A DNA stretch of 64,000 bases, from contig PKQU02000001.1 in the NCBI GenBank assembly GCA_017577925.2, forward strand, positions 839 through 64,838, read 5' to 3'. The translations under genes were made by a program, and so were the position numbers. Each line of letters starts with the position of its first letter. Position 1 is the first letter of the stretch. The DNA is from Bacillota bacterium (GTDB lineage: Bacteria; Bacillota; Bacilli; Calditerricolales; Calditerricolaceae). Shown here in pieces: positions 46,311-55,412 of the stretch. Under the pieces are notes generated by a model. It worked only from the letters and a program-made list of their open reading frames with translations. It did no database searches and was not told the DNA's origin.

Positions 46311-47495
46311 TCACGTACGCAGCTTTTTAGAAGATCGTGACGGCAGATTTTTTGCTGCCGCATACCCCAGGTAGACCAGAAGGAAGACCACAAAACACAG
46401 CGCGGTGAGGCGATACATCACGGCAAAGCTGGTGAGGCCGGCGATGGGGCCCAGGAGCATCGCCCCGCTGCCAATGCCCAGGTCAAAAGCGGAAAAGAAC
46501 GTGGCGGTGGCCGATCCGCGCTTTTGCGGGGGCACGCGCTGGATGAGCCACGCCTGCAGGGTGGGTTGGATGGCGCCGAACGCGATCCCGTACAGCATGG
46601 CGGCCAGCACCAGGCCGCCGAGGGTGGAGGCGTAGGAGAGCACCAGCAGGCCCGCCATTCCGAACCACGCCCCCGGCATCAGCACCCAAAATGGGCCTTT
46701 CCGGTCAAACAGGATCCCGGCCACCGGCCGGACGACGAGCAAAAACAGGGCATTCACGGTGAAAAACCATCCGATGTTGGCGATCCCGATTTCGTTCCCG
46801 AACAGGGGAAGGAAGCTGACAAGGCCCCCATAGGTGAAGGTCACGAATATTACCAGGAAAGAGGGAAACAGCGCTTTTCTTTCGAACAGGCCCGCCCAAA
46901 AGGGTTTCGTGCCCACGGTTGCGCCGTTTTCCGGCAACGCGGGGATCCGCACCAGCTGCGTCAGGGCCAGCGAGAGGAGGGTGCTCGCGGCAGCAATCGG
47001 GAACAGGAGGCCAAAGCCGAACCGGTTGAGGATCCCGATGCCCATTAACGGCGCGACGGCCATCGCCAGCGTGGAGGAAAACCCGAAGTATCCCATCCCT
47101 TCCCCCCGCCGGGAGGGCGGAATGAGGTCGGACGCGATCGTCCCGTAGGCGGTGGTCGAAATCCCCCAGCCGACGCCGTGCAGGATTCGCGTCAACAAGA
47201 TGGAAAGGACGGAAGGGGCAATGCCATAGCTGACAATGGCACACAAGTTGAGGAGCAGGCCGACAACCAAGACCCGTTTGCGTCCGGTCCAATCCAGCGC
47301 AGCGCCGGTAAACGGGCGGATCAGCAGCGCAAAAATGGTGAAGATGCCGGTGATGAGGCCGACGTCAGTCTGGTTTCCGCCGTGTTGTGTGACATAAACC
47401 GGAAGAGTGGGCACGAGCATCTGAAATCCGAAAAATTGAAACAGATTGGCCAGGGAAAGCAACACAAAGTCTTTCGTCCACAGCTTTTCTTTCAA
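46311..47495 (-). CDS. MFS transporter (12-TMS)
   Basis: About 394 aa from a TTG 5 nt after AGAGGTG (GTG at 47501 is the alternative). ALDWTGRKRV loop motif. The in-frame extension to 47780 lacks an RBS and looks non-protein-like. Confidence 0.8.
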   Translation of the reverse strand: MKEKLWTKDFVLLSLANLFQFFGFQMLVPTLPVYVTQHGGNQTDVGLITGIFTIFALLIRPFTGAALDWTGRKRVLVVGLLLNLCAIVSYGIAPSVLSILLTRILHGVGWGISTTAYGTIASDLIPPSRRGEGMGYFGFSSTLAMAVAPLMGIGILNRFGFGLLFPIAAASTLLSLALTQLVRIPALPENGATVGTKPFWAGLFERKALFPSFLVIFVTFTYGGLVSFLPLFGNEIGIANIGWFFTVNALFLLVVRPVAGILFDRKGPFWVLMPGAWFGMAGLLVLSYASTLGGLVLAAMLYGIAFGAIQPTLQAWLIQRVPPQKRGSATATFFSAFDLGIGSGAMLLGPIAGLTSFAVMYRLTALCFVVFLLVYLGYAAAKNLPSRSSKKLRT

Positions 47496-47664
47496 TTTCA
47501 CACCTCTTTCTACAGAGGATTCACGTGCGCGGTCCGCGTGGGCGTGTTCTTGCCTATTGTATTCCCTTTTTCCCGGCTTCATCAACAAGATGTCCCGCAA
47601 CCACCACCCGTTGCGGTTCCTGAACGGGTTGACAACGAGGAAGTTGCGTCGCGCAAATGACCGA

Positions 47665-47702: not shown

Positions 47703-47917
47703 CCCGATTCTCGGGAGGTGGTGACAATGATGGCCACGTCGATGACTCGGGCACAGCAGCCAACACCTAAATATGATCAACTCGTGTGCTAGACCATCGT
47801 CGGCAGGATGACTAACTGGTAAACATCTAATAGAGCTTTATATACCCTAACAAACATGGTAAATCAATATCAATAGCTTTGAACTTCTCCTTCTAGTAAG
47901 AATCCTACCAAAAATGC

Positions 47918-47946
47918 TTGACAGATCCAGTGGTCCAAACTACAAT
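47918..47946 (+). promoter_or_regulatory. Near-consensus sigma-A promoter at the head of the island
   Basis: TTGACA, exactly 17 nt, TACAAT, in a 27-33% G+C stretch 30-40 nt upstream of the first island ORF. Confidence 0.65.
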
Positions 47947-47975
47947 GATGGTGGAAAATATTCTATCAATTATGG

Positions 47976-48278
47976 ATGAGTTGTAAAATGAAGAAACGTT
48001 TACTTGCAACCTGCGCTGGCATTGCACTGGGGGCTGTGCTGGCTGGAAATGCGTTGGCCAGCGGTTATAGTGAATGGGCGCAATTGAAGAGTTCTGTCGT
48101 GGGTGGCAACTATGTAAGGTGTGAATTATACGATAATACCGCTGTTTCAGATTGGTATTTGATTGGCGACGGCATATTCCTAATACAAACCTATCAACGC
48201 CTATCCTGGTCAGTATGTGCATGTACGATTGATGTCCGCGCGGCAGGAAACCAGAGTCCTGATGCTCCTAACTATTAA
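47976..48278 (+). CDS. Small secreted protein with Sec signal peptide (cleavage predicted after ALA), about 71-aa mature part with 3 Cys, no family recognised
   Basis: MSCK-MKKRLLATCAGIALGAVLAGNALA|SGYSEW... The start may be the second ATG (47988). First gene after the island promoter. Confidence 0.65.
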   Translation: MSCKMKKRLLATCAGIALGAVLAGNALASGYSEWAQLKSSVVGGNYVRCELYDNTAVSDWYLIGDGIFLIQTYQRLSWSVCACTIDVRAAGNQSPDAPNY

Positions 48279-48297
48279 TGAAAATATCACTTTTTTT

Positions 48298-48321
48298 ACG
48301 GGGGCTTCCGACAGCCCCCGT
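48298..48321 (+). promoter_or_regulatory. Strong GC hairpin between the secreted-protein gene and the first ABC membrane gene (possible attenuator or mRNA stabiliser)
   Basis: 8-bp stem ACGGGGGC/GCCCCCGT with 8-nt loop. The T7 run lies 5' of the stem, not 3', so it is not a canonical terminator. Confidence 0.5.
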
Positions 48322-48343
48322 CTGTCGTGAGGAGGGACTGGTA

Positions 48344-49135
48344 ATGTGGAAAACCGAATTCCAACGAGCATTCCTGGGGATTCCGTTTTGGCTTGCTGTT
48401 GTAATCGGCACACTGTTATGCATGATCGGGCTTTCCAGTTATTTTGAAGGCCCGAACGTAATTCCCGGTGCACATCCGTTTTATCGAAATGCCTATGAAG
48501 CGTGGCTATTTGCGTATGCGGAAGGTCCCACAGCGCTGTTTGTTATCCTGGCACCTTTGCTGGCTGTTTTGCCGCACGCCGATGCATATGTCATGGATCG
48601 TACGACCGGCTACCTGCGGTTTGTTCTTCTTCGGGTGCCGCGTTGGCGCTATTTCCTGATGCGGTTGGCGGTTGTGGCCTTGTCTGGTGGAATTGCCACT
48701 GCATTACCGCTAATCATCACCTTCGGTATCACGAACCTGATGTTGCCCCGTGGGCTTCCGCCTAGGAGTCCGGGTGAACTTGAGCCGGTAAGCTTTTTGA
48801 ATGTAGTTTACTGGAGCAATCCAGATGTATTTGTGTTCATCGCCACGGGATTAGCCTTTTTGTTTGGCGCGGTTTACGCAACCTTTGGGTTTGCTGTATC
48901 CGCTTATGTGGACAAGCGCTACCTGGCGCTGGTCACTCCTTTTGTGTTCTATCATGTGACCAATTTTGTCCTGGCCGCACTGGGACTTGAGGAATGGACG
49001 CCACCGGGGATGTGGGTACCGTTTGGGATCACCACATCAACCGCTTTTTCCGTGTTCGCCCAACTTATGCTGATGTTGACCGCCACATTGCTTGCCTTTG
49101 CCCTACGGGAAACGAGGCGATCAGTGCATGCGTGA
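48344..49135 (+). CDS. ABC-2-like integral membrane protein, class alpha (P1)
   Basis: 263 aa, about 6 hydrophobic segments. Motif DRTTGYLRFVLLRVPRWRY. ATG 7 nt after GAGGAGGG. Paralogue of P4. Confidence 0.8.
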   Translation: MWKTEFQRAFLGIPFWLAVVIGTLLCMIGLSSYFEGPNVIPGAHPFYRNAYEAWLFAYAEGPTALFVILAPLLAVLPHADAYVMDRTTGYLRFVLLRVPRWRYFLMRLAVVALSGGIATALPLIITFGITNLMLPRGLPPRSPGELEPVSFLNVVYWSNPDVFVFIATGLAFLFGAVYATFGFAVSAYVDKRYLALVTPFVFYHVTNFVLAALGLEEWTPPGMWVPFGITTSTAFSVFAQLMLMLTATLLAFALRETRRSVHA

Positions 49136-49967
49136 ACGGAAAGGACAACCGCAACGTTTGGTCCATTTGGTAAGAGTCGAACTGATTCAACGACTGACAT
49201 CATGGCGCTGGACGGTATGTGCTTTTCTATTCATCCTTGTGGCATACCTGCAAGGGGGAAGAGTGCTGGTTAACGCCGCGAACCAAAACGAATATGTCAA
49301 CATATGGGACGCCCTGTTTTCGATTTTCGCCAATCGTCACATTTTGATGTTTGTGCTCATCCCTTTGTACTTGTATGGAATCAGCGATCTCGTGGTCGAT
49401 CGAGGTTGGGGAGAAACCTATGCGTTACGGTGCGGGTCGCGCAAGTGGTGGTGGTACGGAAAAGCCGCGGCATTAGCTGTGGTAACAGCGACCTATGTGG
49501 CGCTCGGAATAGCACTGGCGGGCGGGACCTCAACCTTCGCGTTTCGGGCGGAAGGGAACTGGAGCACATACGCACGGCAAACCCTGGCTGATTTGTATCT
49601 GTCCCCGATGTTGTTGGCCTTACCACCTGGATTAAGCTTGCTGATTTTAGGTGTTTGGCTGTTTCTCAGCCTATACGGGTTCGGGATGATAACGATCGCC
49701 CTTTCATTGCAGTTGAACGCACCGGTCTATGGATTTACCGGAGGTATGGCACTCTTGTTTTTCGGTTTTCTGCTAATCGATCTCCCTATATTCTCGTGGG
49801 TACACATGGTTTCACCGACCTATCACCTACTCATCCTGAGCGCAATGGATCGTTACTCCGTGCTGGCCCTGTCATTTGGCTATTGGCTGGTTTGGATCGT
49901 CCTGATTGGGTTTTGGGGGCTTCGACTCAGCCAAACACACCATTTTTTAACAAAAGGTCGCACGTGA
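49128..49967 (+). CDS. ABC-2-like integral membrane protein, class beta (P2)
   Basis: 279 aa. NIWDALFSIF...DRGWGETYALRCGSRKWWWYGK. ATG overlaps the P1 stop (ATGCGTGA). Paralogue of P5. Confidence 0.78.
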   Translation: MRERKGQPQRLVHLVRVELIQRLTSWRWTVCAFLFILVAYLQGGRVLVNAANQNEYVNIWDALFSIFANRHILMFVLIPLYLYGISDLVVDRGWGETYALRCGSRKWWWYGKAAALAVVTATYVALGIALAGGTSTFAFRAEGNWSTYARQTLADLYLSPMLLALPPGLSLLILGVWLFLSLYGFGMITIALSLQLNAPVYGFTGGMALLFFGFLLIDLPIFSWVHMVSPTYHLLILSAMDRYSVLALSFGYWLVWIVLIGFWGLRLSQTHHFLTKGRT

Positions 49968-49986
49968 ACGTGGGGAGGGACGAAGC

Positions 49987-50781
49987 GTGTCATTTCGCTT
50001 GTTTCATTGGATGTTCCTAACCACGTTTCGTGGCTGGCATCTAGGGGTCAGCGGGGTGGTGTTTGCATTTCTCGCGTGGCGCAGTGTTCAAAAGGCGGTA
50101 ATCGTATCCGGGGAATCAGCCACGATGCTCGATGCCGTTTTTTTCGCCTTTTGTGGTCCAACAAAAGAAAACCTCTATTTTCTCGATGGCCTTGCCTGGA
50201 TGTTACCGCTGTTTCTCCTGTTTTACTTTTTTGGGGACTCGACTCGCCGAGAGTTAGATATAAACGGTGTGTTCATCTTGCTTCGCGTGCAATCGCGCTT
50301 GCGTTGGTGGACAGCAAAGGCGATCGCACTACTAGTAGCCGTGTTGGCGGTGTATGCGTGGGCGGTTTTAATAGTGGGGTTGGTCGCTTGGGGGATGTTG
50401 GGAAGCGGAAAGAGCGGGCTCTCCTTGACGGTGGACAACACCACAATAAGAGTATCAGATTTGATCTGGACCTTTGGTCTTCATGCGTTGACCGGATTTG
50501 CCCTGGTGTTGGCCCAAAACGTGCTGGCACTGGTGATGCGCCCCGTCTTCGCTTTTTTCGTTGTGGTGACGGTGGTGGTAAGCTCCTGGATGAGCGGCGC
50601 ACTACCTGTCGAGGCGCTGCGCTGGATGCCGGGTAACCAGGGAATTGTAATGCGCCATACTTTGTTTGATCCGGAAGTCTTCGATTTTTCCTTAATCTGG
50701 TCCCTTGGGTATAACAGTTTGCTGATAGGCTTGCTTGCTTGGGTTGGCGCATGGCGCTTGCATCGGATGAACATTTCCTAG
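49987..50781 (+). CDS. ABC-2-like integral membrane protein, class gamma (P3)
   Basis: 264 aa. FILLRVQSRLRWWTAK. GTG 6 nt after GGGGAGGGA. Paralogue of P6. Confidence 0.78.
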   Translation: MSFRLFHWMFLTTFRGWHLGVSGVVFAFLAWRSVQKAVIVSGESATMLDAVFFAFCGPTKENLYFLDGLAWMLPLFLLFYFFGDSTRRELDINGVFILLRVQSRLRWWTAKAIALLVAVLAVYAWAVLIVGLVAWGMLGSGKSGLSLTVDNTTIRVSDLIWTFGLHALTGFALVLAQNVLALVMRPVFAFFVVVTVVVSSWMSGALPVEALRWMPGNQGIVMRHTLFDPEVFDFSLIWSLGYNSLLIGLLAWVGAWRLHRMNIS

Positions 50782-50804
50782 AACCGAAGAAGAGGGGGGA
50801 GACG

Positions 50805-51503
50805 ATGACTGCGGCAGGGCGAGTGAACGAAACGGTTGTGCACGTGAAAAACGTGACCGTACGCATGAAGAACCAAGTGGTGCTAGAGCGGATCAACTTG
50901 CAGTTGGATGAAGGGAAAATTTACGGCATCATTGGACGAAACGGTTCGGGGAAGACCATGTTGCTCCGCGTATTGTGCGGGCTGGTTCGGCCCAGCGAAG
51001 GGGAGGTGTGGGTGCTCGGGCGCGAAATCAGCCGGCCCGGAGCCTTTCCTGATGAGGTGGGAGCCGTCATCGAGACACCGGGTTTCTTACCGCAATACAG
51101 CGGTTTGAAAAACCTGAAATTGCTGGCTTCCCTTCGCAACCGCATCGATGAGGACGACATCAAAGAGGCTATTCGGCTGGTAGGGCTTGATCCGGAGAAC
51201 AAAAAACCGGTGCGCACCTATTCTCTCGGTATGCGCCAGCGTCTGGGCCTGGCACAGGCGATCATGGAAAAACCTCGGCTCCTGCTCTTGGATGAACCGT
51301 CTAACGGCTTGGATCAGGAGGGTGTGCGCGACCTACACATCCTGTTGCGCAACCTGCGTAGCAAAGGGGTCACGATTTTGCTGACCAGCCACAGCCGGGA
51401 GGAAATTGAGACACTTTGTGATGCCGTGTATTACATGGAACGGGGACGGCTCGAAGCCTTGCCAGAAGTCCAGGGATCACTTCCAATAGAAAAACATCTG
51501 TAG
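50805..51503 (+). CDS. ABC transporter ATP-binding protein, LanF-like (E-loop) type (A1)
   Basis: Walker A GRNGSGKT. E in the Q-loop position (VGAVIETPGF). Signature YSLGMRQRL. Walker B LLLLDEP. H-loop TSH. Confidence 0.88.
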   Translation: MTAAGRVNETVVHVKNVTVRMKNQVVLERINLQLDEGKIYGIIGRNGSGKTMLLRVLCGLVRPSEGEVWVLGREISRPGAFPDEVGAVIETPGFLPQYSGLKNLKLLASLRNRIDEDDIKEAIRLVGLDPENKKPVRTYSLGMRQRLGLAQAIMEKPRLLLLDEPSNGLDQEGVRDLHILLRNLRSKGVTILLTSHSREEIETLCDAVYYMERGRLEALPEVQGSLPIEKHL

Positions 51504-51542
51504 AGCTTTAAAGCCCTCTTTTTTTACATCGGAGGTGATCAC

Positions 51543-51656
51543 ATGAAAACCGTCATCAGCACCAAATCTTCCGAGCAGATCTTGGCCAGCCGCGCGGCTT
51601 GTTGTGAAGACGGGCGCTTTCGTCTGCAGGCCGTCAAGGACGGACCGCCGCGGTGA
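51543..51656 (+). CDS. Candidate 37-aa ORF MKTVISTKSSEQILASRAACCEDGRFRLQAVKDGPPR
   Basis: Below the track cutoff. ATG 5 nt after GGAGGTGA, directly downstream of A1. Composition changes part-way through the ORF, so it may be a gene fragment. Confidence 0.35.
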   Translation: MKTVISTKSSEQILASRAACCEDGRFRLQAVKDGPPR

Positions 51657-52208
51657 CCCTGTGACCAAGGGATTGCTGGCCAAGTGCGCCCGCCATCAGC
51701 AGCCCGCACAAGCGCGCACGCCGAAAAAGAAGATGGCCGGCGTAACCGCAGCCGTTGCCCTGGAACGGTCGGAATGGCCATGCCGGCCGCAGCATTGAAG
51801 GGACAGGAGCACACTGGAAAAGCGTGCCACTCGTAAACGTACGAACATGTCTAATGGTTTTCTTTTATTACAATTCATGGTTAATAGGTAACAACCAGAA
51901 TTTTCGTCGTATCTTCCCCTTCTTTTCGTCTGCGACCAGTTTTTCATGCTGCTGACCGGGGGAGATATCCCTGGTTCTGGGCAAACTGCCCGGGGATAGA
52001 TTTATAGATTGATACACAGCCAGGGAATGGAATACTGAAAGGGGGCTTCGAAAAAACATTAGACGGAAAAAGTTAACGAAATCCACAGACTGCCTCTGGT
52101 AATCGGCAATCTACTACAACAGCTAGGCATCAGAAGGACAGAAAATTACGTATTTCCTCAAACGGAACACATAGAATCATGACTCTGGCATAGAAAGGAT
52201 AATGCTGT

Positions 52209-53057
52209 ATGTTCAGTATTCTCTCTGCAGAAGCTCATCGTTTGCGACATCGTTGGCAAACCGCCTTGGCCTTCTTGCTAATCGTCGGGTTTATGGTTCA
52301 AGGTTACATTGCCTATCAGAATAACGGATATCTATCCAATCAGTTCAGTGCGTATATTGCATATCTCTACGCATTAGGGGCCGGCGGAAGTGCTTTTTGG
52401 ATCGGCATCTTGCCCTTGGCCGCTTGCCTCATCACAGGGGATAGTTTGGCTTGGGACCGGAAAACAGGAGCCGTTCGCTTCCTGCTCGTTCGCGTTCCGC
52501 GCCGGCGTTACATTGTCCAGAAAATCCTGGCCACCAGCCTCTTCACCGGGCTGTTGTTCTTTGCCGGGTTTCTTGTTTCGTTTCTCATTGCCATCGTGTG
52601 GTTTCCGATGACGCTGCCGCCGTGGCATGTGGTCAACGGTGTTCCTACACTGAGCCACATTGCTCCGAATGGGGAGGTCTATCCGTTTCCTACATTTTTC
52701 CACAATCTTTTTTTTGAGCATCCGTTCGTGCACGTGCTCTTGGTTACGCTGGTGGTGATCCTCTCGGCAGTCGCCTGGGCAAACCTGTCGCTGCTTCTTT
52801 CGCTCTGGACGACAAATATTTATCTGGTCTTGGGGATCCCCTGGCTCGCTTACATTGTGGTGATGTTCATTATGGCCATTCCAGTCGTTGGTCTGCCCCA
52901 CATCTCGCCGCTGGCCCTTTCCGGTCCGTTCATCGCCATGCGGTCGGGCTCTCTCGGATTGTGGATTCCGTTCATTTGGCTCGTGATTATTGTAGGCCTG
53001 GCAGCCGCTACCTACACGATCTTTGTTTTAAGGAAAGGGAGGGACATCCTTGAATAA
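52209..53057 (+). CDS. ABC-2-like integral membrane protein, class alpha (P4)
   Basis: 282 aa. DRKTGAVRFLLVRVPRRRY matches the P1 motif. RBS AGAAAGGA. Confidence 0.8.
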   Translation: MFSILSAEAHRLRHRWQTALAFLLIVGFMVQGYIAYQNNGYLSNQFSAYIAYLYALGAGGSAFWIGILPLAACLITGDSLAWDRKTGAVRFLLVRVPRRRYIVQKILATSLFTGLLFFAGFLVSFLIAIVWFPMTLPPWHVVNGVPTLSHIAPNGEVYPFPTFFHNLFFEHPFVHVLLVTLVVILSAVAWANLSLLLSLWTTNIYLVLGIPWLAYIVVMFIMAIPVVGLPHISPLALSGPFIAMRSGSLGLWIPFIWLVIIVGLAAATYTIFVLRKGRDILE

Positions 53058-53712
53058 CAATACTTCGATGGCCATCGAAGCACACAACGTCGAAAAACAC
53101 TTGGGCGGCGTGGCCATCCTCCGGGGTGTCAATCTTCGCGTGGAATATGGAGAAATCGTGGCCATTGTGGGCGCAAACGGGTCCGGGAAATCCTTGTTCC
53201 TTCGCACCCTTTGCGGCCTGGTCTATCCGGACAAGGGCCAGATTGTGATCGGAGGGCAGCTCCTCAAACCCGGAATGACAGGGGCGCTTGCCGACGTTGG
53301 CGTGCTGATCGAGACGCCGGGATTTCTGCCGTATCTGTCGGGAATGGACAACTTGCGGCTTTTGGCCATGCTGCGCCGCCGGATTACCGATGATGAAGTT
53401 GCAATGGCCATGCGCCAGGTCGGGCTCGATCCGGCCAACAAGCGTCCTGTCCGGACGTATTCGATGGGCATGCGGCAGCGCCTGGGCATCGCCCAGGCCT
53501 TGATGGAACGGCCACGTGTTCTGTTATTGGACGAGCCCACGAACGCGCTGGATCCGGAGTTCACGGAAACCTTCCTCCAGATGCTCAAAACGTTGCGTAC
53601 GCAAGGTGTCGCCATTGTCCTGACGTCCCACGAATTACACGAGGTTGCGGAGCTGGCGGACCGCATTCTCGTCATGCGGGACGGGATATTGTCGGATTAC
53701 CGTCCCGCTTAA
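53050..53712 (+). CDS. ABC transporter ATP-binding protein, LanF-like (E-loop) type (A2)
   Basis: Walker A GANGSGKS, VGVLIETPGF, YSMGMRQRL, LLLDEP. TTG 5 nt after AAGGGAGGGA. Clear paralogue of A1. Confidence 0.88.
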   Translation: MNNNTSMAIEAHNVEKHLGGVAILRGVNLRVEYGEIVAIVGANGSGKSLFLRTLCGLVYPDKGQIVIGGQLLKPGMTGALADVGVLIETPGFLPYLSGMDNLRLLAMLRRRITDDEVAMAMRQVGLDPANKRPVRTYSMGMRQRLGIAQALMERPRVLLLDEPTNALDPEFTETFLQMLKTLRTQGVAIVLTSHELHEVAELADRILVMRDGILSDYRPA

Positions 53713-53732
53713 AGGGAGGGAACCCCGATCCC

Positions 53733-54548
53733 GTGTCTTTCCGCATGGTCTGGTTTCATGCACTGGTTTTATTGAGCCGCACACGATGGAAGGTGGTTCC
53801 GCTCTTCGCCCTTGGGATCACAGTCCTTGCGGTGGCGGATCTCGCCAAGGGTTACGGGAAGCTCGGCGATGCGAACCAGTGGGACGTCTTGCTGAATGTG
53901 TTCAACGATCCGTTTAAGGTCGTTGTTCTTCTGCCGGCATTCTTTTTCATCCTGGTTGCGGATGTCGTGACGCAAGACCTCGAAGGATGGGGGTATCTAC
54001 ACTGGAACCGCGGTCCGTCTCGGGCTCTGTGGTGGTGGAGCAAGGTAGGCACCGTGGGAATTGCGGCCTTCCTGTACAGCAGCATGATGTGGCTAATTGC
54101 CGTGCTGGTCAGCGTCTTTACGGTGCAATGGCAGCTACCCTGGAGCCGGTTGGTGATGCTATCGCAGTGGAGTTACCCGGGCGGTCTTGGGCCGCAACAC
54201 CTCCATGTGCCACCACCCGTGATTTTGTTTCAAGCGTGGGGATTGATCACCTGGGGCCTTTTCGTCTGGGGCACGATCATTGCCCTCCTGGCCTTTGTGC
54301 TGCGCCATACCGGCATAGCCTGGATGACAGGTGCCGCAAGTTGTTTGATTTCGTACGGCATCTGGATAATTGCTACGGAAAAAGCTCCCTGGGCACCCAC
54401 CTTGCACTTGCTGTTGAAGGTACACGTAGAATTCGAGAGCCGGGTGCCTGCGTTCTTCACGATCGGATGGTCGTTCCTCGCAGAAACCCTTTTGCTCTTG
54501 GCCGCCGGCGTGGTGGGTCATCTTTTGTCGGTGAGGCGTGATCTTTGA
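53733..54548 (+). CDS. ABC-2-like integral membrane protein, class beta (P5)
   Basis: 271 aa. NQWDVLLNVF...EGWGYLHWNRGPSRALWWWSK parallels P2. GTG after AAGGGAGGG. Confidence 0.78.
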   Translation: MSFRMVWFHALVLLSRTRWKVVPLFALGITVLAVADLAKGYGKLGDANQWDVLLNVFNDPFKVVVLLPAFFFILVADVVTQDLEGWGYLHWNRGPSRALWWWSKVGTVGIAAFLYSSMMWLIAVLVSVFTVQWQLPWSRLVMLSQWSYPGGLGPQHLHVPPPVILFQAWGLITWGLFVWGTIIALLAFVLRHTGIAWMTGAASCLISYGIWIIATEKAPWAPTLHLLLKVHVEFESRVPAFFTIGWSFLAETLLLLAAGVVGHLLSVRRDL

Positions 54549-55375
54549 CCATGGAAAATGCAGGGCTGCATCAACATGGGCGACTTTGCAGCGTGGAGTT
54601 TCGCGTATTGGCAAGGCGACGAATATGGCTGATGCTCTTGCCGATTGTGGGGCTCTATGGGATCCTGAGCGCCCTGAATGTCAAGAATGGAATTTCCGAT
54701 CACCTTTTGAACCCTTGGCAAATTGGGGTTATGGTCCTGGGAGGACCGTCGTTCCAGGCGTCCGTGCTGAAAATCCTTGAGTGGCTGATCATCCCTGGCG
54801 CGTTCGTCCTTGGCGTGGGCGAGCCGTATTCCCTGTTGGCGACCTCCTGGAACCAACTCGTCCTCGTTCGCGTGCCGAGCCGCTGGCGCTTCTGGTGGGG
54901 ACGAACCGTCACCTGGTACGGGTGGGCCTTGCTGTACGGACTTGTGGTTTTGGGAATTGGCGTCGTAGCCGGGAAAATGGCGCATCCATCGGCTGCGTGG
55001 GGCATACCCCAAACGTTGAGCCTGGACAATTTGCAAATCGAAAACGGGTTCTTGCTGATCGCTTGGGTTGGCCTCTCTCTCGTGGCCACGCTTTGGGGCT
55101 ACACTACCCTGCTGCTCCTTTTTTCGCTGTTTTTCTCACGTCCTGGCGTGGCGACGATTTTCACATTGGTCGTGGGGTACGGGTTAACAGCTCTGGGCGT
55201 AAACGTCCCCAGCGTCATCTCCTACCTTCGCCCGTTGTTGGGAGCAAGACTGAATCTGTTTCCAGATACAAACCTGAACGGGAACGACTTCTTGTCACTT
55301 GGCATTAGCACAGGTGTTTGGGTATTCGTCGGTGTGTTAGCTGGATATTCACTTTTCCATCGCAGATCAATATGA
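54545..55375 (+). CDS. ABC-2-like integral membrane protein, class gamma (P6)
   Basis: 276 aa. LVLVRVPSRWRFWWGR parallels P3. TTG overlapping the P5 stop (ATG at 54551 is the alternative). Confidence 0.78.
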   Translation: MTMENAGLHQHGRLCSVEFRVLARRRIWLMLLPIVGLYGILSALNVKNGISDHLLNPWQIGVMVLGGPSFQASVLKILEWLIIPGAFVLGVGEPYSLLATSWNQLVLVRVPSRWRFWWGRTVTWYGWALLYGLVVLGIGVVAGKMAHPSAAWGIPQTLSLDNLQIENGFLLIAWVGLSLVATLWGYTTLLLLFSLFFSRPGVATIFTLVVGYGLTALGVNVPSVISYLRPLLGARLNLFPDTNLNGNDFLSLGISTGVWVFVGVLAGYSLFHRRSI

Positions 55376-55376
55376 T

Positions 55377-55412
55377 GTTAAAAAATAGGCCCGCAAAAAC
55401 GGGCCCTTTCTT
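55377..55412. terminator. Bidirectional intrinsic terminator at the right island border
   Basis: A6, stem GGCCCG/CGGGCC, 6-nt loop, then CTTTCTT. Confidence 0.7.

Follow-up and report, generated by a model that had tools for sequence, protein, structure and literature searches.

A degraded member of a widespread DUF2712 and ABC transporter module in a low-GC island of an uncultured Bacillota genome

We analysed a 64,000-nucleotide stretch of DNA, hereafter the window, from an uncultured, high-GC Bacillota bacterium (GenBank assembly GCA_017577925.2, contig PKQU02000001.1), and in particular a low-GC island in it at approximately 47.5-55.5 kb. The island contains the remains of a gene for a small secreted protein, followed by two ATP-binding cassette (ABC) transporter cassettes, a and b, each encoding three membrane proteins (M1, M2 and M3) and one ATPase (A). 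This locus is a degraded member of a widespread, named but uncharacterised module, and it is not unique to this genome. A preceding sequence-only reading had rightly described a foreign-looking locus, which is confirmed as real, but had held that its head protein was unrecognisable and that three membrane proteins per ATPase matched no system that could be named. The head gene belongs to the Pfam family DUF2712 by profile search, and dozens of genomes and plasmids from Bacillota and Bifidobacterium contain the same module. The products nevertheless do not fall into one well-characterised operon type; the module is conserved yet uncharacterised, and its parts carry Pfam DUF labels. The NCBI metagenome-assembled genome GCA_054654135.1 contains the same locus, as do several assemblies from Logan and JGI.

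The search that opened the family was an exhaustive HMMER search with the first membrane protein of cassette a (M1a), which returned 1406 cluster representatives at E ≤ 1e-3. A gene for a protein with a Sec signal lies directly upstream of M1 in locus L012, a Bacillus thuringiensis plasmid, a Bacillus cereus plasmid and, as a fragment, Clostridium botulinum pCLG1. The profile built from these four proteins retrieved 132 proteins, nearly all of which were already labelled PF10916 (DUF2712), with those bearing a name called "hypothetical". A local Pfam run reproduced the DUF2712 label for some of the 132, and cluster members are named only "hypothetical" or "DUF2712 domain-containing". A search of the available literature library found no paper mentioning DUF2712 or DUF2705. 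The model of P0179, the closest intact relative of the open reading frame (ORF) in the window (pLDDT 89), is an eight-strand jelly-roll β-sandwich, whose structural neighbours (PirA, Ena2A, the YPM superantigen, GOLD domains and CBM36) are all weak, with template modelling (TM) scores of ~0.5. Foldseek comparison of DUF2712 with viral models returned unnamed jelly rolls only.

A scan with the motif AxGVWSPDS[VI], taking one genome per species, gave 43 loci, hosted by Listeria, Enterococcus, Pediococcus, several Lactobacillaceae, Bacillaceae, Clostridium, Lachnospiraceae and Bifidobacterium. M1 adjoins the DUF2712 gene in 42 of these, and 41 contain the family ATPase; contig ends cut the remaining loci. 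Wherever the context is readable, M1 is followed by two membrane proteins of ~250-290 amino acids (aa) and an ATPase of ~215-230 aa. A response regulator is encoded nearby in 11 of the 43 loci, and in 26/40 (L027-L069) the gene after the ATPase encodes a single-pass, membrane-anchored β-rich protein of 160-200 aa. This accessory sixth gene, which has weak DUF4352/DUF5067-like matches, is also present in L014 (11122-11673) and L015 (4856-5320); no trace of it was found in the window. The module was further found in a 3.7-Mb metagenomic genome (L010), in two Logan contigs (L012 and L023), on a B. thuringiensis megaplasmid, and on mobilisable plasmids of 8.5-10 kb from Lactiplantibacillus plantarum, B. 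cereus and Lactococcus lactis, where, replication and mobilisation genes aside, it is the main or near-sole cargo. The B. cereus plasmid adds only a GrpB-family gene and one hypothetical gene to the module and the mobilisation gene. In a phage collection, only three unannotated gut contigs were matched.

The linkage between DUF2712 and the pump is tight and asymmetric: DUF2712 practically never occurs without the pump, whereas the reverse does occur. Cassettes without a DUF2712 gene are found in L010 and in both copies on Clostridium tetani pE88 (L013, 7992-15308), and DUF2712 remnants accompany those of L. plantarum, C. botulinum and the window. On pE88, the tetanus-toxin plasmid, one cassette is split by ISClte2 (IS200/IS605), and the other is intact and directly adjoins the collagenase gene colT. 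On the L. plantarum plasmid (L015), whose pump is intact, the DUF2712 homologue at 1442-1872 is on the minus strand, in the opposite orientation to the cassette, and its sequence is divided between two frames. Tandem DUF2712 genes precede a single cassette in Bacillus spizizenii TU-B-10 (three genes; L044, 6963-8438), where the module adjoins yvyE and LCP-family genes, and in Clostridium sp. UBA1056 (four genes; L049, 5759-9568). A Bacillus locus (L025/L026) has two DUF2712 genes and an upstream gene of 192 aa; the UniRef cluster of one DUF2712 protein there (P0275, 7001-7432) is called "Lactococcin 972 family bacteriocin", a name that neither Pfam nor NCBIfam reproduced.

In the window, both cassettes contain members of the three positional families M1, M2 and M3 together with an ATPase of the ~215-230 aa class in which glutamate replaces the Q-loop glutamine (E-loop). 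An intact DUF2712 gene upstream of M1 is lacking, since cassette a is preceded by a relic and cassette b by none. Because other family loci also lack this gene, its loss marks an orphan variant and membership in the module stands. All genes lie on the plus strand. Cassette a has the order M1-M2-M3-A and comprises M1a (48344-49135), a type-V (ABC-2) membrane subunit with ~6 transmembrane helices according to its HMMER family, AlphaFold2 model and fold match; M2a (49128-49967; 312 bits on its positional profile), a paralogue of M3; M3a (49987-50781), which matches PF10920 (DUF2705) with 37.3 bits against a cut-off of 22.4 and its positional profile with 289 bits; and the ATPase A_a (50805-51503; PF00005). 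Cassette b has the order M1-A-M2-M3, which is found in 0 of ~55 other loci: M1b (52209-53057; M1 profile, 253 bits), the ATPase A_b (53050-53712), M2b (53733-54548; M2 profile, 257 bits) and M3b (54545-55375; M3 profile, 265 bits). The permutation of the cassette into two orders is thus present as previously noted. With profiles that were built with the window sequences included, the membrane proteins of both cassettes score 253-317 bits on the profile of their own position and <55 bits on those of other positions. Independently of these profiles, M1a has 390 library matches at E ≤ 1e-10.

The glutamate of VIETPGF in A_a and LIETPGF in A_b aligns with the Q-loop glutamine of ABCA3, which confirms the E-for-Q substitution that had been proposed for both ATPases; the E-loop is found in 51/52 ATPases of the module family, including these two. 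The best NCBIfam family for the ATPases is TIGR03740 (lantibiotic protection, LanF-type), with 187.1 bits for A_a and 169.9 bits for A_b, both below its cut-off of 309.75 bits. Their closest PDB matches are ABCA3, NosF, chain C of PmtCD (6xjh_C) and Rv1218c. None of the six membrane proteins has an NCBIfam match at E ≤ 1, and a direct homologue search with M3a returned near-identical sequences only. The positional profiles separate M1, M2 and M3 into three distinct families, of which M2 and M3 are related with an hhalign probability of 98.7% and M1 to either with 91-92%. Because the high-confidence model of M1a (pLDDT 94.9) superposes on NosY, its best fold match, and then on chain A of PmtCD (6xjh_A) and ABCG transmembrane domains, M1 is, on the strength of this model, a true type-V/ABC-2 subunit. 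Both features of a type-V exporter are thus found, namely a six-helix ABC-2 fold (M1a model) and an ABCA/DrrA-like nucleotide-binding domain. M2 and M3 probably form a heterodimeric channel.

At the head of the island lies the relic of a DUF2712-family secreted-protein gene (47988-48278, plus strand; the longest ORF starts at 47976), as identified by profile search and allele comparison. The sequence-only reading had described a Sec-secreted small Cys protein. The open frame with a Sec signal stands, and the signal peptide MKKRLLATCAGIALGAVLAGNALA is intact, but the mature part is truncated and frameshifted, and the cysteines lie mainly in out-of-frame sequence. A direct search of 5.8 billion proteins gave only 3 near-identical matches to this ORF, and the family was assigned by profile search. 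Its C-terminal end is AAGNQSPDAPNY, whereas the four proteins used for the profile end in G-x-W-S-P-D-S. Seven assemblies contain three indel alleles of the relic, each in independent assemblies: 1 bp is inserted in the window allele, 7 bp are deleted in L002 and L003, and neither change is present in L019-L022. The L019 allele has its family-homologous part (…WYSIGDGTSLYKPINAYPGQYVHVRL) in one frame and its C-terminal motif (IDVRATGNWSPDAPNY) in another. The extra base of the window allele rejoins the N-terminal part with the C-terminal motif, whose tryptophan is now glutamine; the 17 intervening residues IFLIQTYQRLSWSVCAC are out-of-frame sequence and hold two of the three cysteines. In addition, ~25 residues are missing where the mature domain of the relic begins. 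Between strains, no other stretch of the locus varies as much as the relic, with 92-95% identity and indels, whereas the other genes that align end to end are 97.7-100% identical, except M3b (96.9%). NCBI annotation does not call the gene. From these sequence comparisons, the ORF is best read as a pseudogene, a decayed DUF2712 gene, and as an example for annotation, the "hypothetical secreted Cys protein" would be a pseudogene artefact. The relic's promoter is best read as surviving because it drives the transporter genes. No trace of DUF2712 was found ahead of cassette b, in the spacer at 51.5-52.2 kb or elsewhere in the island.

The two cassettes had been taken for a duplication of the whole unit. 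A recent one does not agree with the data, as cassette a is nearer to cassettes of other organisms than to cassette b. M1a is 37-41% identical to the M1 proteins of L012 and L023 versus 28% to M1b (E 3e-15), and A_a is 58-59% identical to their ATPases versus 51% to A_b. M2a and M2b are 25% identical (E 5e-8), and the relationship of M3a to M3b is detectable by profile only. The nearest relatives of the DUF2712 relic are likewise the DUF2712 genes of L012 and L023. Judged by sequence, the two cassettes are old, anciently diverged paralogues, and because both cassette a and the relic are closest to L012 and L023, the pair goes back either to a single duplication long ago or to two acquisitions made separately. 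The 706-bp spacer between A_a and M1b is non-coding apart from a small ORF of 37 aa (MKTVISTKSSEQILASRAACCEDGRFRLQAVKDGPPR; 51543-51656, plus strand), which has a strong ribosome-binding site (RBS; GGAGGTGA) and was called by several gene callers; its status is uncertain, and its region gave no family, RNA or repeat match. It is contained in a patch of ~280 bp (about 51543-51830) with a host-like GC content (0.63-0.66) within this AT-rich spacer. The patch may be native DNA caught between two separate insertions, although it is not proof of them. None of the eight transporter ORFs is shortened in any of the assemblies examined, and the ATPase motifs are intact. Six of eight strain differences alter the protein in M1a, as do six of eight in A_a. 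The differences in cassette b are mostly silent: A_b has 4 nucleotide and 0 amino acid changes and M1b has 7 and 2, respectively. Cassette a may accordingly be less constrained than cassette b, although so few sites do not settle it.

The block is compositionally foreign, which agrees with the horizontally acquired look noted earlier. GC content is 0.43-0.59 over ~47.5-55.5 kb against 0.60-0.70 in the flanks in a sliding profile, with a mean of 0.53 for the island and 0.644 for the remainder of the window. GC content at third codon positions (GC3) is 0.42-0.72 in island genes, compared with 0.77-0.88 in the genes for phosphoenolpyruvate carboxykinase and a major facilitator superfamily (MFS) protein, wrbA, marR and rluD. 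The earlier hand counts of G+C (16/60, 30/60 and 44/60) were all exact on recount. In eight of eight other loci (L010, L012, L013, L014, L016, L023, L024 and L044), the cassette is likewise poorer in GC than its flanks, the difference being 1 to 11 points; low GC content thus accompanies the module in whichever host it occurs.

Most of the structural description in the sequence-only reading holds. The island has nine same-strand ORFs plus the 37-aa small ORF. Most genes have an AG-rich RBS or overlapping stop and start codons as claimed, but the signals are weak at the small head ORF, M2a and M1b. A sigma-70-like promoter, TTGACA-17-TACAAT, lies at the island head (47918-47946, plus strand; 11/12 matches) and is identical in seven strain assemblies save one spacer base. 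At the other end, an intrinsic terminator (55387-55406) is predicted on both strands, being bidirectional and common to the island end and the convergent wrbA. As stated earlier, no regulator, protease, integrase or transposase was detected inside the island by Pfam, NCBIfam or PADLOC; the PADLOC defence models gave generic ATPase matches and nothing else. No riboswitch or other RNA family was found in the island, and its borders are not marked by a nearby tRNA, an integrase or flanking direct repeats. The flanking MFS gene (46311-47501, minus strand), which had been regarded as a core gene, has a GC3 of 0.77, below that of its neighbours. Its best metagenomic relatives are 49% identical, come from organisms with ~35% GC and share zero common neighbours, and no close relative of the host was found by this search. 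This gene may have been acquired too.

We propose, with confidence evenly balanced, that the module couples a toxin-like secreted protein to an ABC pump conferring immunity, and that it is reduced here to orphan immunity. A complete module starts with between one and four DUF2712 genes, each encoding a small Sec-secreted jelly-roll protein with C-terminal G-x-W-S-P-D, and continues with three type-V ABC membrane subunits, a distant M1 and the paralogues M2 and M3; at its end is a LanF-like E-loop ATPase, often plus the single-pass membrane protein. By analogy, the DUF2712 protein would be an envelope-active, bacteriocin-like toxin, and the ABC complex would shield the producer by removing it from the membrane surface. 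LanFEG is thought to clear lantibiotics from the membrane likewise, as are orf2 and orf3 for lactococcin 972. The logic of a toxin with dedicated immunity draws on the asymmetric linkage, the Sec signal, plasmid carriage, tandem DUF2712 genes, the LanF-like E-loop ATPase and the ABC-2 fold. In the present genome, the head gene has decayed, cassette b lacks one, and the eight transporter genes and the promoter are intact, so that the locus may now act as orphan immunity or resistance against DUF2712-type proteins of neighbours. Because the secreted-protein gene is a frameshifted relic and the pumps are intact, stand-alone self-protection is most likely. The bacteriocin export or immunity reading proposed before thus still fits best, with ATPases nearest the LanF type, but their scores fall below the family cut-off.

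Several observations weigh against this proposal. Toxicity and immunity are attributed to the DUF2712 family by analogy only; DUF2712 has no sequence or fold relation to lactococcin 972 in Pfam, NCBIfam or the Foldseek top 50; the membrane proteins do not match LanE/LanG models; and the proposal offers no role for the third membrane subunit. The strain changes in cassette a also look near-neutral, and this cassette may itself be losing function, though the sites are too few to decide.

The pump could instead be a generic resistance transporter for antimicrobial peptides or lantibiotics (LanFEG- or CprABC-like) that expels exogenous membrane-active peptides, with DUF2712 as an accessory or an unrelated neighbour. 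TIGR03740 as the best ATPase family and the E-loop would suit such a pump, as would the cassettes without DUF2712, the response regulators near 11 of the 43 loci and the kinase genes in L012 and L023. We consider it unlikely: the ATPases score far under the TIGR03740 cut-off, no LanE/LanG model was matched, and no genes for ribosomally synthesised and post-translationally modified peptides (RiPPs) lie within 10 kb on either side. Moreover, DUF2712 is almost never found apart from the cassette, which argues for a specific functional tie between them.

Alternatively, the ABC complex might release, fold or anchor a non-toxic jelly-roll protein after its Sec export, such as a surface lectin, adhesin, fibre subunit or signal. 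The resemblance of the jelly roll to PirA, the Ena2A spore-fibre subunits and carbohydrate-binding modules, the strictly conserved polar residues, the frequent sixth gene for a membrane-anchored β protein, and the extracytoplasmic partners of NosDFY-like type-V systems are all consistent with this role. However, intact pump genes kept after loss of DUF2712 (eight here, and also in pE88 and L010) would be unexpected of a pump that existed only to serve DUF2712, and the near-sole cargo of small mobilisable plasmids better fits a selfish toxin/immunity trait, so we regard this explanation as quite improbable. It is very unlikely that the entire island is what remains of a horizontally acquired element, non-functional and in decay. 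The head pseudogene with its three alleles, the absent sixth gene, the near-neutral changes in cassette a between strains and the non-coding spacer of 706 bp between the cassettes point in that direction, but the eight transporter ORFs are full length in all assemblies examined, their ATPase motifs and RBSs are intact, the changes in cassette b are mostly synonymous, and the promoter is conserved.

Extending the toxin and immunity proposal to the whole family, we suggest more tentatively that DUF2712 may represent a new class of Sec-secreted, unmodified jelly-roll bacteriocins (~12 kDa), whose producers are protected by a dedicated three-subunit type-V pump. The module would spread through Bacillota and Bifidobacterium by way of small plasmids and islands, examples being pE88 and, provided that the link discussed below holds, the Rok-silenced Bacillus subtilis yybN operon; the window would then be the orphan-immunity end state. 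If the toxin/immunity pair is true, it would constitute a new class of protein bacteriocin and a new immunity-pump architecture. By itself, the locus is a degraded example, and its interest lies in the linked gene set that it exposed, which has no assigned function. This gene set occurs in Gram-positive bacteria associated with food, gut, soil and pathogens, and is the near-sole cargo of several small plasmids.

Among known systems, lactococcin 972 of L. lactis pBL1 is a secreted bacteriocin encoded, along with an ABC transporter to which a role in immunity is ascribed, on a small plasmid that the system stabilises (PMC4055356). Like that system, with its Sec-type secreted, unmodified, β-rich bacteriocin, the module has a Sec-secreted β protein followed by an ABC transporter. 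Membership in the lactococcin 972 family is rejected by model match, fold and type of membrane protein alike. The Lactococcin_972 models (Pfam/TIGR) did not match the window ORF or eight intact DUF2712 proteins at E ≤ 10. The DUF2712 fold is an 8-strand jelly roll of ~105 residues, and the Lcn972 structure is not in its Foldseek top 50 (PDB). The Lcn972 system has one large multi-pass membrane protein, whereas the module has three ABC-2 subunits of ~270 aa each. The module also resembles LanFEG (NisFEG, EpiFEG and NukFEG) in its LanF-nearest ATPase with the E-loop and in its multi-subunit ABC-2 composition with two paralogous membrane subunits, but it has three membrane subunits instead of two, and its partner is a folded protein of ~12 kDa, not a RiPP. 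No MutE/MutG-type (LanE/LanG) model matched at E ≤ 1, and the Pfam labels of called genes revealed no lantibiotic biosynthesis or LanRK genes within 10 kb on either side. LanFEG membership is thus also rejected, as the E-loop is present but the TIGR03740 cut-off is not reached, and a LanE/LanG match and linkage to lantibiotic genes are lacking. Because defining features of both systems are missing, the module can be said to work like lactococcin 972 immunity and LanFEG, not to be a member of either. In structure, it is close to NosDFY and PmtCD: the M1a model fits NosY with TM scores of 0.57-0.64, followed by chain A of PmtCD, and the ATPases match NosF and chain C of PmtCD. This likeness is at the fold level only (12-21% identity), and the partners and biology are unrelated.

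A candidate archetype of the module is the B. subtilis operon yybN-yybM-yybL-yybK-yybJ, with a small first gene, three membrane-protein genes and a gene for an ABC ATPase; its presumed homology to the window locus serves as a lead only. This order would correspond to DUF2712-M1-M2-M3-A, with M2 and M3 as paired subunits. The yybN operon region has a low GC content, is regarded as horizontally acquired, is repressed by Rok and has no known function (PMC2978689, PMC11841835). YybJ2KL has been modelled as a type-V exporter, again without a known function (PMC11466899), and the function of YybN was still given as unknown in a 2026 study (PMC13599486). The B. spizizenii and Bacillus loci described above were considered as the yyb locus itself and rejected, since the Rfam yybP-ykoY riboswitch was not found nearby. 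Given the yybN link, a true toxin/immunity pair would provide a testable function for an operon that has been listed as "unknown" for two decades. The window differs from the yybN operon in having a pair of cassettes, one in permuted order, and in the decay of its first gene.

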